64,000 nt of DNA from Nanobdellota archaeon (GCA_042571645.1 JBHPFW010000005.1:1536-65535); one strand, 5' to 3'. Counted from the first letter of the stretch, positions 26,007 to 37,031 are shown. Numbers and translations are program-made. Notes: generated from the letters alone by a model not told the origin.

Positions 26007-26777
26007 TCACTTCAATTTCTTAAAAGACTGGCTTTTTTTCAAAAACTTATAGAAATTTTCTCTGTTATGAGGTTTGTTTAATGAACTAGCTTTAAATATC
26101 TTGCCGATTTCTTTTAATCTTTTTATGTTATCTTTTGATTGGCTTTTGCCATATTTCTTTAGAACATGTTTAACTTCATGATTTTGAGAAAAGGATATTA
26201 ATTTTCTGTCTAGATTGCTGGATTTAGTTGTTTTCTTCTTCTGCGACTTTTTTGAACTTGATTTCTTAACAGATTTCTTTTTTGTAGCTGCTTTTGTGGA
26301 TTTTTTCTTCTTAGCTGGTGTTTTAACTTTCTTGACTTTTGAATTTAATCCATTAATATCATAATGATGCTTCAGTATTACACTTTGATGGCTTTTTACC
26401 ATGTCTTTGAGTTTCTGCATATCTGATGTCTGTGCTAATGCCTCACCTGGTGTTGGAATACCCATAGCAGCACTTGCTACATGATCAATCTTTTTGTTCA
26501 AAGCTGCAATATGTCTTTGCTGCATTTGAATCTTAGCATCTACAGCTAAAGCATCAATTTTCTTATTTAGAATCTCTATAGCTCTTTGTTGGGCTTCTAT
26601 TATCCTATTTTGCCTTTCTATGACTGAATTGAACTGTTCTGCACTAAAATCAAGCTGAGAAGCCTTTAAAACTTCAATTTGGTTCAATAATACATTCATA
26701 TCCCCTTTTACCCTAATAAAAGCTGTTCTAAGCCTTTCATCGCGCCTTATTAGCTCTGATTGCATTGAAGGTTCCAT
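26007..26777 (-). CDS. coiled-coil protein with Lys-rich linker and small C-terminal domain
   Basis: Heptad repeats, a KKKS/KKTT stretch, and DRKLISFSQNHEV (DUF3606-like). Confidence 0.6.
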   Translation of the reverse strand: MEPSMQSELIRRDERLRTAFIRVKGDMNVLLNQIEVLKASQLDFSAEQFNSVIERQNRIIEAQQRAIEILNKKIDALAVDAKIQMQQRHIAALNKKIDHVASAAMGIPTPGEALAQTSDMQKLKDMVKSHQSVILKHHYDINGLNSKVKKVKTPAKKKKSTKAATKKKSVKKSSSKKSQKKKTTKSSNLDRKLISFSQNHEVKHVLKKYGKSQSKDNIKRLKEIGKIFKASSLNKPHNRENFYKFLKKSQSFKKLK

Positions 26778-26912
26778 AAACACTGAAAAACAACCTGAGT
26801 ATTTAAACATTTTGATTTTTAGTTATCAAAGAGTGGTAACGATGGAAAGGTTTATAAAGGGATACAAAAGTCCTTATCATCTAAAGAATATAAACTACAA
26901 ATGTGATAATTC

Positions 26913-27746
26913 ATGGCAAAAAAAAAGATTGACCTGGCAACATTTAAAGCAATGCAACAACCCACAGCAGCAGATTTCTTTGACGGCCAGCCAGAGGATA
27001 GTCCTTTTGCAAAACTAAAAGTTCTTATGACTTATCTTAATATGAGTCCTAAACTTAAAGGGGGAAAATCTCATGTAGATTATGGCAAAATTGTTCTTGA
27101 TGGTATCGGAGAACAAAGAGGAGATACAGAATCAGAAAGATATGTTGATAGATTTAATGATCTCAGTATTCTTTGCATGCCTTCTAAAGTTGGTCCTGTA
27201 GTTGCTTTAATTTCTGCAGTATTAGGTATGAAACCATATCAAGTTTGTGATAGTGAAGAGAATGCAGAAACTCTTTTAGAAACTATTGCTGAACTTTCTA
27301 CTTTTGGAATCATAGAACCAGATTCAATTGCAATTGCATATGGCGGTGGTTTAGATCTAGAACTACTTAAAAAAATGGGTGAAATAAACCCTCCTTATAT
27401 TAATGAATTGATGCCAACCCCTCAAGACAGAGTTGTTGGTGGTAGAGTTGGTAATTTTGATCCTAGAACACTTGACCAATTTGGAATTGGTTTTGATAGA
27501 TTTGATTATGTATTTTTAGATGAACAGGGCAGTGTTAATCAAGCTTCAGCAATTGCTTATTTTGCAACACAAGCAAAACCTGGTGCTGGTCTTATTGTTA
27601 CAGGAAAAGATCATGTTGCAAAACTTGCTGATTGGGCCAATGGCCATCCTAGTTTAAGGCCGGGTGAAACAAGATATACTGGCACAGAAGCTCAGCCTGG
27701 AATTTCTTATAAAATTATAGAGAAACTTGATTTGACTTCAGATTAA
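26913..27746 (+). CDS. hypothetical protein
   Basis: 277-aa ORF with upstream TTTATAAA; no family recognised. Confidence 0.6.
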   Translation: MAKKKIDLATFKAMQQPTAADFFDGQPEDSPFAKLKVLMTYLNMSPKLKGGKSHVDYGKIVLDGIGEQRGDTESERYVDRFNDLSILCMPSKVGPVVALISAVLGMKPYQVCDSEENAETLLETIAELSTFGIIEPDSIAIAYGGGLDLELLKKMGEINPPYINELMPTPQDRVVGGRVGNFDPRTLDQFGIGFDRFDYVFLDEQGSVNQASAIAYFATQAKPGAGLIVTGKDHVAKLADWANGHPSLRPGETRYTGTEAQPGISYKIIEKLDLTSD

Positions 27747-28135
27747 TTTTCTCTTTTCTCATTATCCTGCATTTGGTCATAATTACAATGACAATAGGTC
27801 TTAGAAGGTCGAAAAAATGATGCCTTTAGTGTTATTGTTTTAGACGGAATAGTTGCAGCATATGGACATATATTCTTATTAAACCAATCTTTATCCCAAT
27901 ATCTCGAGCTATATCTGCAAATGCCAGGTATTCTTCCTCTGTCAGTTACCAACTCTACTTGATGGCATAACCCATTACTCCTGATATAATCATAAGCATA
28001 TCTAATATAATCATGGGATGCAGTGATTGTTTTTTTTACTGTACGGGTGCCAGCACCTCCCAAAGCCAAAACTAAATCTGCCAAGCAATTGATTAAATTG
28101 TCGCTTTGACCTCTGTAATAATTTTTTTGAGACAT
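27743..28135 (-). CDS. hypothetical Cys-containing protein
   Basis: 130-aa ORF with upstream TATA; no family recognised. Confidence 0.5.
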   Translation of the reverse strand: MSQKNYYRGQSDNLINCLADLVLALGGAGTRTVKKTITASHDYIRYAYDYIRSNGLCHQVELVTDRGRIPGICRYSSRYWDKDWFNKNICPYAATIPSKTITLKASFFRPSKTYCHCNYDQMQDNEKREN

Positions 28136-28205: not shown

Positions 28206-29795
28206 TCAGAGAATCTTAAAATCCACACAAATTCTAAAAACTCTTGGAGAAAACTGCCCGCACTTCACTAGATCAAGAATTTTATATTTCACATTATTCC
28301 TCTTGCAAGCTTTTTTTACTTTTTCCTTGGCAAGATTGAATTCGTCTTCTGCTAAGAAATCATAGAAATGTATTATTGTACCTTTTTTTGCAGCTAATAA
28401 AGCTGTATCAAGAAAATCCTCTGCTGATTTTGGTAGGGGCATTAGTATTCTGTCAAACTTCTTTATATTATGTTCAACTTTGAAATAACTCTTAATCATT
28501 TCTTTTGCTTTTTTCTCATCCTTGTTTCTAACTTCAACAACACCTAAATTAACATAAGGCAAAATCTTTGAGAAATCTATAGAACCTTTACCAATTTCAC
28601 AAGTATGAGCTTTATTATTATGATCGGCAATATGAAAATAAGTATTGAAATTCTTTCTTATTTCTTTAATATGGTCTTCAATTTTATTATTGTTCTTATA
28701 CAATATGAATAAATGAGCAGTATCAATACAAATGTTCTTAATTCCCGCTTTTTTGCCTATTCTGACTATGTCTTCTGTTCTTGAAAAAAGACCGTCAATA
28801 ACATTCTCAAAATAAAAATAGTCATAATACTTACTTAATTTCATAATATTCTCAACTAAGATATCTTCATAATTCTTTGAATCGGAATCAGAGGCGGGAT
28901 GCACAATAGCTTTAATATGATATTGTTTGCATAAAGACCCCAAAATATTAAACATTCTAAGCTCTTCAGCTATATTCTCTTTAGCAAGATTATATTTTTC
29001 TCCATTCTTTTTATGAAATGGCATGTGAAGAACAACTTGTATTCCTTTAGCCTGTAAATCCTGAATTGCATTTTCTAACTTATCAATCCCCTCAAAAAGA
29101 TCATTATCAAAAAGATGTATCTCCATTATTACTGGATGATTCAATAACCTTGTTTTTAGTTGTTTTTCTGAATCAGAAGATTTTAAACCAATCAAATAAT
29201 GATATATATTAGGAACAACATCATTAACATCTCCATTAATCAGCACAACATTATGAAGTTTATTTAGTTTTAAATTCTGCATAGCATAATTATGTGCATC
29301 AGGATTTATTTCCATACCAAAAACATTCCTTGCTTCTGTATTTTTTGCAATAACACACGTAAAAGGCCCACAGCCTGAAAACATTACTAAAACATCTTCT
29401 CCTGGCTTAACTTGCTGGAATATTCTTTTTCTTTCTGTTGCGGATCTAGAAGAAAAATATGTTTTTTCTAAGTGAAGTTTGATTCTGGCATTGTTTTCTT
29501 TATGTATTGTTTCTTTTGTTCTTTTACCGACAATAATTTTGTATTTCTGCAGCCTGAATTCTCCTTTGTGCTCAGATGCTTTTTTTACAACAGTTTTTAT
29601 TTGCTTGTTAATCTTCAGTATTTCCTCTGCAATTTTCTTTTCTTTTTTTACAAGTTCATCCGGAATCTCCATTATAGCGATACTGCCCACCATATCGTAA
29701 GCAGTTCTGACTATTTCCAGTTCTTTTTTTGTGAGAATTTTGTTTTTTTCTAATGCTTCTTTTAGTTTCATTTTAACCATAACACTATGAATCAA
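28206..29795 (-). CDS. trm5: Trm5/Tyw2-family tRNA methyltransferase with inserted endonuclease IV/xylose isomerase-like TIM barrel
   Basis: YD.VG.IAI, YFSSR..TER, MFSGCGPF and EINP motifs; about 247-aa insert (HMP, HP, FEN, DTAH, HIAD, VEV); then FDRILMPLPK...IHFY. Confidence 0.85.
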   Translation of the reverse strand: MIHSVMVKMKLKEALEKNKILTKKELEIVRTAYDMVGSIAIMEIPDELVKKEKKIAEEILKINKQIKTVVKKASEHKGEFRLQKYKIIVGKRTKETIHKENNARIKLHLEKTYFSSRSATERKRIFQQVKPGEDVLVMFSGCGPFTCVIAKNTEARNVFGMEINPDAHNYAMQNLKLNKLHNVVLINGDVNDVVPNIYHYLIGLKSSDSEKQLKTRLLNHPVIMEIHLFDNDLFEGIDKLENAIQDLQAKGIQVVLHMPFHKKNGEKYNLAKENIAEELRMFNILGSLCKQYHIKAIVHPASDSDSKNYEDILVENIMKLSKYYDYFYFENVIDGLFSRTEDIVRIGKKAGIKNICIDTAHLFILYKNNNKIEDHIKEIRKNFNTYFHIADHNNKAHTCEIGKGSIDFSKILPYVNLGVVEVRNKDEKKAKEMIKSYFKVEHNIKKFDRILMPLPKSAEDFLDTALLAAKKGTIIHFYDFLAEDEFNLAKEKVKKACKRNNVKYKILDLVKCGQFSPRVFRICVDFKIL

Positions 29796-29798
29796 AAA

Positions 29799-30833
29799 TT
29801 AGAAAAATTCACCTAAACCTTTTTGGGAATTCTTGGATTTTTCCTTTTCAATATTCTCTATTGAATCTTCAATTCTTGTTGTTGAGAAATCATGCTCGCT
29901 GCACAGTATCTCCTTAACCCTGTCATTGTTCATTGGTTTCCATACCAAGTCATAATCATTTGTTACTGGCATTTTTGTTATTGTATAATATACTTCAGTC
30001 CAAGGAAAGTCAAAATGATCATCCCATTTCACTTCTTTGAATAAAGCGTCAAGGTCTGCACCGTGTTTCTTGACAAGCTTTAGGGCATTGACAGGTCCAA
30101 CACCCTTTATGCCTCCGATATTGAAATCTGTTCCAACTAACATACCTAATGCAATCAGCTGTGTATGGTCTATGCTCAGATTATTTAGGTTTTCTGAAAG
30201 ACTAACTAATTGCGGTTTTATAGTTTCATATGCGAGTTTGCTTTGTTTTTTTTGGCGTTGTGTAAGTGTAAGGTTCTGAATCATTCTTTCTACTCCAAAC
30301 AACAAACAATCCTGGTCTTGAGATATTTCTGCATATGCGTGTCCGTTTTTAACTATTTGTGCTGCTTGAGCTTCTCCTTCTGACGGTGCTTGTACAATCG
30401 GCATTCCCATTGCTTTAATGAGTTTTTTTGCATCCTCAATCATTTCAGGAGTCATTACTGTTGTTCTGGCTGCGTATTTTTTCATTCCCTCAAAATCTTC
30501 TCTTTGTTTTGCTACTTCATATTCTTCTTTTGCATCTTCTTTCAATCTACGACGTCTTTCTCGTTCCTTTTTCTTCAGATCTGGTGCTTTTCCATCAAAC
30601 ACAAAGGATATTTTCATTCCTTTCTGCATTAACTTAGAAGTCCTGTGAAACAAACCAGAAAGATGAGATGTTACATTGCCTTTTGAATCTGTCAGCAAAC
30701 TCCCATCATATTGTCTTATTGAAGCAAGAAACTGATACAGCATATTCATTGCATCCACTACAAGAATCTTCCCTCTAAGAGATTCAAATGTTATTTCTTT
30801 TTTCACCAAGATGTCTTTTAGTTTTACTCCCAT
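29799..30833 (-). CDS. fen: flap endonuclease 1
   Basis: MGV start, YQFLASIRQ, VFDG, APSEGEAQ, SQD.D and GTDFN motifs; C-terminal PIP box QKGLGEFF. Confidence 0.97.
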   Translation of the reverse strand: MGVKLKDILVKKEITFESLRGKILVVDAMNMLYQFLASIRQYDGSLLTDSKGNVTSHLSGLFHRTSKLMQKGMKISFVFDGKAPDLKKKERERRRRLKEDAKEEYEVAKQREDFEGMKKYAARTTVMTPEMIEDAKKLIKAMGMPIVQAPSEGEAQAAQIVKNGHAYAEISQDQDCLLFGVERMIQNLTLTQRQKKQSKLAYETIKPQLVSLSENLNNLSIDHTQLIALGMLVGTDFNIGGIKGVGPVNALKLVKKHGADLDALFKEVKWDDHFDFPWTEVYYTITKMPVTNDYDLVWKPMNNDRVKEILCSEHDFSTTRIEDSIENIEKEKSKNSQKGLGEFF

Positions 30834-30851: not shown

Positions 30852-31847
30852 TCAACCCAATTTCTTAACAGTCATGTTCTTGAATTCTTTCTCAAGCAGT
30901 TCATTTGCTTTTTTAGTAATATCTCCTAATGTAATAAATAATATTGGTAGTTTTTTCATCTGTCCTTGGATAAATGCTGTGCTTAAATCGCCGTCATTAA
31001 TTTTCTTTTTTGTTTTTGCTTTGCAAAAATACTGAAGTTTCCCAACTGCAGAAGGTACATTTATAACAAAATCTACTTCTGAATTTTTTCTTATTATTGT
31101 TTGTTCTATTATTTCAATCTCATTTCTACTGAAGTATTTTTTTATTCTTCTTGAGAACTCATCATCTGGTTTTTCTTCTTCTTTCTTGATTCTGATTTCT
31201 TCCTGTTGATTTTCAGCTAATTTTGTTTGTGATTCTATTGGTTTTTCTTGTTGAACTTGAATCTCAGAAACAGATTTTGGAATGGATGATTTTTCTTGAA
31301 CAACAGCTGGTTGAGGAGTAACTTGCGGTTGTTCTGGCTGAACTTGGTGAGGAACAGTTTGTGGTTGTTCTGGTTGAGCTTGCGGCTGTTCTGGTTGTTC
31401 CTCTGCAAACCCTAATTTATCTTTAATTATTTTTTCTGCTTCTTCATCAGATGTTTGGTACCATTTCCAAAACAAAGCAGTATGTCCGTAAGCAGTGATC
31501 TCCAAAGGCTTGGAAAAATCTTTTATTGCTCTTAATGCTGCTCTGATTACTGGTTCTTGCTCTTCATCTGCAAGAATCTTTTGTTGCTTTAATCTGTCAA
31601 ATGCTTTTTGTTCTTTTTCATGAAGATATTTGTAAAGCATCTCTAGTTTTGGTTCTTGGCCGTCAACATAATACACTGGGGAACTGCCGAATTTTGCTGA
31701 GGATATTTTTATCTTTTTTTTGTCAACTAATTCAGAAAGCATGGCTCCTGCAATTAAAACACTTGTATCCATCTCTTTATTTATCTGAGCTGGCATCACA
31801 GGGCCTTTTGTTCGGATTATCCTCATTAATTTCTCGTAATGATCCAT
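30852..31847 (-). CDS. hypothetical protein (N-terminal wHTH-like, Q/P-rich linker, C-terminal nuclease-like fold)
   Basis: GPVMP..I, GAMLSEL, GSSPVYY and DF...FCKAK motifs; upstream of fen on the same strand. Confidence 0.6.
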   Translation of the reverse strand: MDHYEKLMRIIRTKGPVMPAQINKEMDTSVLIAGAMLSELVDKKKIKISSAKFGSSPVYYVDGQEPKLEMLYKYLHEKEQKAFDRLKQQKILADEEQEPVIRAALRAIKDFSKPLEITAYGHTALFWKWYQTSDEEAEKIIKDKLGFAEEQPEQPQAQPEQPQTVPHQVQPEQPQVTPQPAVVQEKSSIPKSVSEIQVQQEKPIESQTKLAENQQEEIRIKKEEEKPDDEFSRRIKKYFSRNEIEIIEQTIIRKNSEVDFVINVPSAVGKLQYFCKAKTKKKINDGDLSTAFIQGQMKKLPILFITLGDITKKANELLEKEFKNMTVKKLG

Positions 31848-31977
31848 GGTAAATAATAGCTCTGACTGGGTTTTTATATGTTTTGGGTGGTTATATACCA
31901 AAAAGGCTTATAACGCCACTTTTAAGTAATAATTAAAGCAAGGTTTAAATAATTGTTGATTTCCACCTTATTCTAAA

Positions 31978-36461: not shown

Positions 36462-37031
36462 TTATTTATTCTGTTTTTCTTCCAAAACTGTTCTCAATTT
36501 CTCTATCTGATCCCAGCTCTTCTGCATCTTTTCATTAGCAACTTCAACAAGATATTTCAGGTAATCATCACTAATTAATTTCTCACTGTCAAAAACAGGT
36601 GCCTCTAAAAACTCAGAACCTGCAATTTCAACAACAATCTTTTTTCTAGTAGAAAGAATTGCTGGTCTTTTAAAGCTGTTTTGCCTTGCTAAATCAACTA
36701 AATCCTGAGCAATCTCAATACTCTGACAACCAATATGAATTATTGGGGGTTCTTGTTTGAAGATAATTTTTTCTTCTCCAGAATATTTATTCAGTGCATC
36801 CTTAAACTCATCACTATTTGCTAAATCATGTGTAACAACTAACCATTCACATAAATGTTTCTTTGCACATGCCTTCAATAAACATATTCTCCCTGAACAC
36901 GAAGACAAAGTAACATAATCATCTTTAGAATTAACTAATTCACACAAATCCTTAATCTTCTCATCAACTGATCCTTTTCTTGATTTATCTATCCTGGATA
37001 AAACATCCTGTTTTAATTGCTCAAAGCCCAT
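36462..37031 (-). CDS. taw3: tRNA wybutosine/wyosine methyltransferase Tyw3/Taw3
   Basis: D.S.KGSVD, TLSSCSGRI and EPPIIH motifs. Confidence 0.9.
   Translation of the reverse strand: MGFEQLKQDVLSRIDKSRKGSVDEKIKDLCELVNSKDDYVTLSSCSGRICLLKACAKKHLCEWLVVTHDLANSDEFKDALNKYSGEEKIIFKQEPPIIHIGCQSIEIAQDLVDLARQNSFKRPAILSTRKKIVVEIAGSEFLEAPVFDSEKLISDDYLKYLVEVANEKMQKSWDQIEKLRTVLEEKQNK

Follow-up and report, generated by a model that had tools for sequence, protein, structure and literature searches.

A xylose isomerase-like TIM barrel nested within the methyltransferase domain of Trm5 in a DPANN archaeon

The archaeal Trm5 enzymes of known structure include Trm5b and Trm5a of P. abyssi (5yac and 5hji/5wt1, respectively) and Trm5 of M. 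jannaschii (2zzn). Separately, the xylose isomerase-like superfamily of TIM barrels includes endonuclease IV (Nfo; 5zhz, 1xp3, and 1qtw), the free-standing M. jannaschii protein MJ1311 (3wqo, named "D-tagatose 3-epimerase-like protein"; 293 amino acids [aa]), and CbiR of Akkermansia, which acts in cobamide remodeling. MJ1311 is tabulated as a predicted Endo IV homologue in the accessible part of one report (PMC2770678), and the available portion of another describes CbiR as a metal-dependent phosphodiesterase of the same superfamily that cleaves the cobamide phosphoribosyl bond (PMC7733943). Here, we analyzed a 64,000-nucleotide stretch of DNA from a Nanobdellota archaeon (GCA_042571645.1, JBHPFW010000005.1:1536-65535; the window), in which the gene for the tRNA methyltransferase Trm5 carries a whole TIM barrel inside its methyltransferase domain. 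An earlier note, made from the sequence alone, had proposed this arrangement and knew of no described Trm5 built in this way; our literature search likewise found none, with subscription journals outside its reach.

The reading frame at 28206..29795 on the minus strand encodes Trm5 with a methyltransferase domain broken at residues 198 to 444 (28464 to 29204). The frame spans 529 codons counted from TTG, with its stop codon at 28206-28208; since the copy in the protein collection (P0002) has 524 aa, that copy starts at the ATG of Met6. Domain D2 occupies residues 11 to 93 (29517..29765, minus strand, as are all parts of the gene) and matches TYW2_N_2 (PF25133; E = 7.8e-16, over the cut-off). 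The first part of the class I methyltransferase domain follows at residues 96 to 197 (29205..29510), with the S-adenosylmethionine (SAM) motif FSGCG, E162, and GDVNDV, ending in a helix at residues 190 to 201. The second part, residues 445 to 529 (28209..28463), begins with strand beta4 (FDRILMPLPK) and continues into the C-terminal sheet. The Pfam family TRM5-TYW2_MTfase (PF02475; E = 5.9e-41, over the cut-off) was matched in two stretches, the first of which (residues 96 to 195) corresponds to profile positions 1 to 101 of 164. Within the inserted barrel itself (residues 198 to 444; 28464..29204), AP_endonuc_2 (PF01261) matched at residues 241 to 412 (E = 1.5e-8; 35.1 bits versus a gathering cut-off of 31.1). 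The window protein aligned with the archaeal Trm5b structure 5yac (E = 1.6e-50), with which it shares D2 and the class I methyltransferase domain, more closely than with Trm5a (6e-38). In the 5yac alignment, residues 28 to 193 corresponded to 95 to 258 and residues 446 to 528 to 261 to 344, indicating that ~250 residues fill a Trm5b loop of ~2. The insert site is thus the short loop ahead of strand beta4.

Structure models agreed with this division. Modeled alone with 29 relatives in AlphaFold2, the insert formed a full eight-stranded (beta/alpha)8 barrel (predicted local distance difference test [pLDDT] of 95.0; predicted template modeling score [pTM] of 0.92). In the full-length model (pLDDT 93.1; pTM 0.90), methyltransferase helix 190-201 continued directly into the first strand of the barrel, whose final helix (431-441) led into methyltransferase strand beta4. 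The Trm5 fold was kept across the insert, the model superposing on Trm5b, on the Trm5a-tRNA complex, and on the aTrm5-tRNA complex (5yac, E = 4e-23; 5wt1, TMt 0.73). Together, the Pfam split, the 5yac alignment, and the barrel model bear out a whole TIM barrel inside Trm5, and the limits given for it in the earlier note, 28464-29204, coincide exactly with residues 198 to 444.

The host is the only Trm5-family gene over cut-off in the window genome (82% complete), and the residues of its SAM and catalytic motifs were invariant across 49 homologues. Domain D1, the N-terminal domain, is missing from the window protein, though many homologues have it (PF18093). The protein scored 219 bits in two stretches against the NCBIfam Trm5b model NF047730, short of its cut-off of 600, and 180 bits against the Taw22 model, with a cut-off of 550. 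Both the interruption by the insert and the lack of D1 lower the Trm5b score, so the shortfall says something about the model and is no evidence against Trm5 function. From the conserved motifs, the host Trm5 should still make m1G37.

The fusion recurs in related genomes. Searching with the insert region identified 49 proteins of 509 to 611 aa, comprising the window's own and 48 others that share the architecture; identities to the window insert were 32 to 100%, and no higher than 66% once its own copy is set aside. PF02475 and PF25133 were both matched in 49/49 of these proteins and PF01261 in 28/49. Across 401 sampled genomes of the phylum, 35 contained a barrel match, 30 of them strong, and every strong match fell within the window's own order. 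At 27 of the 30 strong loci, a count that takes in the window and the unpublished genome G360, the N-terminal part of Trm5, the insert, and the C-terminal part lay in one frame. Recurrence in independent assemblies leads us to reject an assembly chimera, which the earlier note had raised along with an insert unique to this genome; with 48 other proteins and 27/401 genomes sharing the insertion, neither holds.

The barrel retains a polar residue, invariant or nearly so, at the end of each strand. Its metal-type residues run in the order H257, H299, E330, D358xxH361, H388xxD391, H397, and E421, all present as the earlier note had read them (H, H, E, DxxH, HxxD, H, E). For comparison, we take the nine metal ligands of endonuclease IV to be H, H, E, D, H, H, D, H, and E, in that order. 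Aligned to 5zhz and 1xp3, seven of the endonuclease IV ligand positions were invariant or nearly so in the family. Conservation was counted over 41 fused and 79 stand-alone representatives (120 family members). E225, D358, and H388 were kept in all members of both groups (41/41 and 79/79 each), H257 in 40/41 fused and 79/79 stand-alone, H299 in 39/41 and 78/79, E330 in 41/41 and 75/79, and H361 in 41/41 and 77/79. K205 (40/41 and 68/79) and E421 (41/41 and 62/79) were lower among stand-alone members, a shortfall made up mostly of alignment gaps. The E-D-H-E metal core of the PF01261 superfamily (E330, D358, H388, and E421) was therefore invariant in all 41 fused representatives. We conclude that the barrel belongs to the xylose isomerase-like TIM barrel superfamily, and its residues look like those of a catalytically active protein with a full multinuclear metal site.

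These counts bear directly on whether the insert could be a catalytically inert, structural or regulatory element. The core ligands are kept in 39 to 41 of 41 fused representatives that are only 30 to 66% identical, which argues against inertness and against the inactive insert that the earlier note had considered. On the other side stands the Trm5 of one genome, G046 (L043 781..2262, minus strand, 493 aa), in which another insert, of ~160 aa and lacking the metal residues, occupies this loop. We regard an inert insert as very improbable. The G046 insert may be a decayed barrel, homology being only suggested, since its match to the barrel profile was not significant (E = 6). The same genome also holds an intact stand-alone barrel (L035).

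By profile search against sequences in the PDB, the closest relative of the insert was MJ1311 (3wqo; E = 7.3e-9), followed by endonuclease IV of M. tuberculosis (5zhz; 2.2e-7) and then that of B. anthracis. The motif histidines of the insert aligned in both the MJ1311 and the endonuclease IV matches. MJ1311 resembles the insert in its His, His, Glu, Asp..His, and His motifs; however, it is free-standing and only ~17% identical. We presume that MJ1311 keeps all nine endonuclease IV ligands without the DNA groove. Endonuclease IV shares the fold and the aligned metal-motif residues, whereas the insert is ~40 residues shorter, has short loops, and sits within another enzyme. Structural comparison also placed MJ1311 first (3wqo_B; Z = 23.6; root mean square deviation of 2.3 over 228 aligned residues), followed by the T. 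maritima ketose 3-epimerase 2zvr (Z = 22.5), TTHB071 (21.9), and other epimerases (~21), with endonuclease IV structures at 19.6 to 21.0. Given how close the two groups score, fold alone cannot separate a nuclease from an epimerase.

Among curated models, CbiR (NF041277) was matched most often, by 9/29 archaeal (best E = 4.7e-9) and 13/34 bacterial relatives of the barrel, and deoxyribonuclease IV models were matched by 4/29 family members (best 3.7e-4). No curated epimerase model matched the archaeal set more than once. Cobamide remodeling, the role of CbiR, was considered for the barrel and set aside: CobS is needed to rebuild a cobamide, and it was found in 0/5 barrel-bearing genomes, making this role unlikely.

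Tentatively, we favor a reading in which the barrel is a self-contained metal-dependent hydrolase, probably a phosphodiesterase, that forms a second enzyme in the Trm5 chain. A single polypeptide would then bear two enzymes, the Trm5 host and a nested barrel of the MJ1311, endonuclease IV, and CbiR branch of the superfamily. By analogy with endonuclease IV and CbiR, the barrel would most likely cleave a sugar-3'-O-phosphate ester. It would not act on G37 itself, and Trm5 would at most place it near tRNA. By topology, the barrel termini lie on its noncatalytic face and the insertion falls where beta4 begins at its N-terminal end, so that the two active sites should point away from each other; a site shared by barrel and methyltransferase is unlikely on the same grounds. 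Since both parts are known folds, the protein would be a new architecture made from known parts.

Several observations weigh against this reading. The opposed orientation of the active sites is drawn solely from the topology of the barrel and the Rossmann fold. The positions for a third metal are variable, with D at position 391 in 31/41 fused representatives and D, H, or E at position 397 in 34/41 (D 15, H 13, and E 6). Matches of all relatives to the CbiR and nfo models are far under the curated cut-offs (105 bits for NF041277), and the window insert itself had zero matches to NCBIfam models at E <= 0.1. Inserted barrels are also more basic than stand-alone ones (median isoelectric point of 8.1 versus 5.6 to 5.75), which fits a role near RNA; this keeps a tRNA-proximal role alive and argues against full independence of the two enzymes. 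Finally, ketose 3-epimerases are structurally almost as close as MJ1311 (Z of 21 to 22.5 versus 23.6), and 9/34 bacterial relatives match the model for L-ribulose-5-P 3-epimerase, which would also fit isomerase or epimerase chemistry.

The barrel could accordingly be a sugar or sugar-phosphate isomerase or epimerase with no tie to tRNA, fixed in trm5 by a rare in-frame insertion and retained because both halves are useful. In addition to T. maritima 2zvr, many D-tagatose and psicose epimerases (Z ~21) resemble it, distant family members are fused to the NeuB sialic-acid synthase, and the stand-alone forms are acidic. However, the invariant H257/H299 pair and H361 align to histidine motifs of endonuclease IV; we take these three to be metal ligands of endonuclease IV and MJ1311 that are extra to the epimerase E-D-H-E set. 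CbiR and nfo are the top curated matches in the archaeal set, and zero sugar-pathway neighbors were found at 79 bacterial and 7 archaeal loci. On balance, we consider a sugar enzyme unlikely.

Returning to a self-contained hydrolase, the autonomy of the barrel finds support in relatives that occur without Trm5. A profile search of 1.84 billion representative proteins gave 857 matches at E <= 1e-3, of which 146 reached 1e-10 or better and 68 reached 1e-30 or better. Among 151 scored proteins, 39 had both Trm5 flanks, 12 were fragments with one flank, and 100 were flankless, the last mostly of 245 to 290 aa. Three sister genomes, G046 among them, encode a free barrel of 257 to 269 aa together with a Trm5 lacking the barrel. 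A well-supported stand-alone clade of 35 rows takes in the Weissella "TIM barrel protein" (WP_074426710.1), which belongs to the same family and has the same invariant residues as the insert, but is free-standing, acidic, and bacterial. In quick trees of both parts, inserted barrels as one clade were not rejected (41 inserted barrels; approximately unbiased test [p-AU] 0.78), whereas grouping the 60 insert-bearing Trm5 proteins as one clade was rejected once the insert had been stripped (log likelihood 312 lower; p-AU 0.00059). Taken together, the two trees suggest a single insertion, after which the barrel was repeatedly lost cleanly or alleles were exchanged. The stand-alone copies (~100/151 flankless), the Lactobacillales clade, and the rejected monophyly of fused Trm5 thus point to a barrel that would be autonomous.

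The Lactobacillales protein was found at 169 loci in reference genomes. It is ~265 aa long, has a full Endo IV-like ligand set, and occurs in Weissella, Lacticaseibacillus, Limosilactobacillus, Ligilactobacillus, and some Streptococcus. At 30 of 79 loci examined (L050-L129), a gene for an AI-2E-family transporter lies downstream; the neighbors at these 79 loci were otherwise unrelated, and the seven archaeal stand-alone loci had no neighborhood pattern. With respect to a role in defense, neither the insert nor the two stand-alone relatives submitted to PADLOC gave a match.

Immediately upstream of trm5, 3 nucleotides from its start and on the same strand, lies a gene for FEN-1 (XPG_N and XPG_I; 29799..30833, minus strand). 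This neighbor, together with the endonuclease IV-type ligand order and motifs (CIDTAH in the window, CIDTCH in homologues) and the lack of a TIGR00587 match elsewhere in the 82%-complete window genome, would fit a genuine DNA apurinic/apyrimidinic (AP) endonuclease of base excision repair that is merely hosted by Trm5. However, fen1 adjoins trm5 at 10 fused loci and also at one plain Trm5 (L042), so the adjacency does not track the barrel. The window genome has an ExoIII-family gene, and all five complete barrel-bearing genomes encode a further, better-scoring Endo IV-like protein of 259 to 292 aa. The TIGR00587 cut-off of 129.65 bits was reached by neither the insert nor its relatives. The position equivalent to Tyr72 of endonuclease IV, presumably the DNA-wedging residue, varies among the 41 fused representatives (F 9, L 7, Y 5, and H 5), and the smaller size and short loops of the barrel also count against this role. 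We judge a DNA AP endonuclease to be quite improbable, and nucleic acid repair, one of the functions suggested in the earlier note, is not favored, given those other genes and the missed TIGR00587 cut-off.

That note had also suggested a tie of the barrel to G37 and wyosine chemistry, pointing to taw3 about 7 kb away. Taw3 (TYW3 family, PF02676) was indeed located 6.7 kb off, at 36480-37016 of the window (minus strand; G000:C5:38015-38551; approximate limits of the family match), and both Taw1 and Taw3 were found in the window genome. Taw1 was not enriched with the barrel, being present in 26/30 barrel-bearing genomes versus 308/401 overall (a tally that takes in six unpublished genomes), and no Taw1 turned up in G109, which carries the fused gene and is 100% complete. 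Taw1 co-occurrence is uninformative, and a specific wyosine linkage of the barrel finds no support. The bifunctional enzyme first proposed therefore stands as a two-enzyme architecture, without its tie to wyosine.

A stronger form of the tRNA connection would have Trm5 dock the barrel on tRNA, where the barrel would cut or heal an RNA phosphoester or process a derivative at position 37. Proposed targets are an abasic or damaged nucleotide of the anticodon loop and, at the 37/38 splice site, a 2',3'-cyclic or 3'-phosphate end. The barrel is kept covalently nested within a tRNA enzyme across at least 26 other sampled genomes, the predicted domain arrangement is rigid (pTM 0.90 in the AlphaFold2 model), inserted barrels carry ~8 to 13 more basic charges than stand-alone relatives, and the Endo IV/CbiR-like signature, the presence of Taw1 and Taw3, and tRNA genes that are mostly undetectable in the window genome by standard tools would all be in keeping with such a role. 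Weighing against it are the lack of Taw1 enrichment and the absence of a Taw1 match in G109. The number of detectable tRNA genes does not differ with the barrel (median of 29 in 22 fused genomes versus 26 in 41 genomes of this order that lack the barrel). Moreover, stand-alone relatives occur in Lactobacillales, and bacteria use TrmD rather than Trm5. The insert has been repeatedly lost or exchanged on the Trm5 tree, and the site at the N-terminal end of beta4 would lie away from the catalytic edge. We hold a tRNA-directed second activity to be unlikely. An RNA-directed phosphodiesterase brought to tRNA by Trm5, whether for tRNA repair, end-healing, quality control as a nuclease, or erasure of a phosphate-linked mark, next to the methylase of the anticodon loop, is likewise doubtful; such a pairing would resemble that of healing enzyme and methyltransferase in bacterial Pnkp/Hen1 RNA repair. 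A link of the barrel to intron-rich tRNA genes found no support in the counts of detectable tRNAs.

The scarcity of recognizable tRNA genes is an observation in its own right. The window genome, a metagenome-assembled genome of 1.49 Mb, has almost none visible to standard tools: ARAGORN found 0 (4 with introns allowed), Rfam RF00005 found 1, and only 3 T-loop motifs were present (e.g., G000:C10:23025-23154, C1:43692, and C10:24633). Relatives have 14 to 46 detectable tRNA genes. Several high-completeness genomes of the order (G022, G298, G306, G256, G344, G318, and G332) have 4 to 9 that are detectable by Rfam, and low-tRNA genomes are grouped in a few families (f12, f55, f71, and f50). Low counts in several high-completeness genomes suggest that disrupted or unusual tRNA genes may be widespread in the order.

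The host Trm5 also differs from Trm5b in a motif of the second methyltransferase part. Its sequence there is MPLPK, in which the Asn of the Trm5b motif NLPK is not kept and Pro stands instead, as in PTPK of Trm5a. According to the available portion of a published structural study, Trm5b retains the Asn without exception, and this residue clashes with imG-14, whereas Trm5a, which is bifunctional, has Pro at this position (PMC5714064). By that argument, as far as this portion of the study sets it out, the Pro of MPLPK would also admit the tricyclic imG-14 (PMC5714064). MPLP was present in 75/75 long homologues, and plain, insert-free Trm5 proteins of Woesearchaeota had the Pro motif in 66/85 cases by a strict pattern and in most others by variants. 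Across 145 Woesearchaeota Trm5 proteins, fused or plain, nearly all have Pro at the position of the Trm5b Asn. An Asn-to-Pro change that tracks the insert was thereby ruled out; since Pro is general with or without the insert, it is a lineage trait, separate from the insertion. Taw1 and Taw3 are present and a Taw2 was not found, so Woesearchaeota may make imG2/mimG, and their Trm5 may be Taw22-like, as the Pro-type motif suggests.

Near the locus, four open reading frames (ORFs) of 267, 277, 130, and 349 aa at 26007-28135 and 30852-31901 of the window had no Pfam match at E <= 0.001; the 130-aa ORF (27743..28135) overlaps the 277-aa ORF at the latter's end, the two being on opposite strands. 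Elsewhere in the window genome, a 714-aa ORF (G000:C23; L009 1279..3423, minus strand) contains another PF01261 barrel, interrupted internally by a very large insertion, and ORFs of 655 to 724 aa resembling it were present in 5/5 relatives checked.

An essential tRNA methyltransferase whose catalytic domain houses a complete second enzyme would be a rare natural domain-insertion chimera. Its host is a tiny DPANN archaeon, and the design is common to dozens of related species. The family also provides a handle on an orphan branch of endonuclease IV/xylose isomerase-like proteins that comprises MJ1311, the Lactobacillales "TIM barrel protein," and the Woesearchaeota barrels. A barrel that acts on tRNA would represent a tRNA processing or repair activity of a new kind. 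Otherwise, the locus would offer a clean natural case of a barrel with adjacent termini put into, and apparently removed from, a loop of a Rossmann fold.

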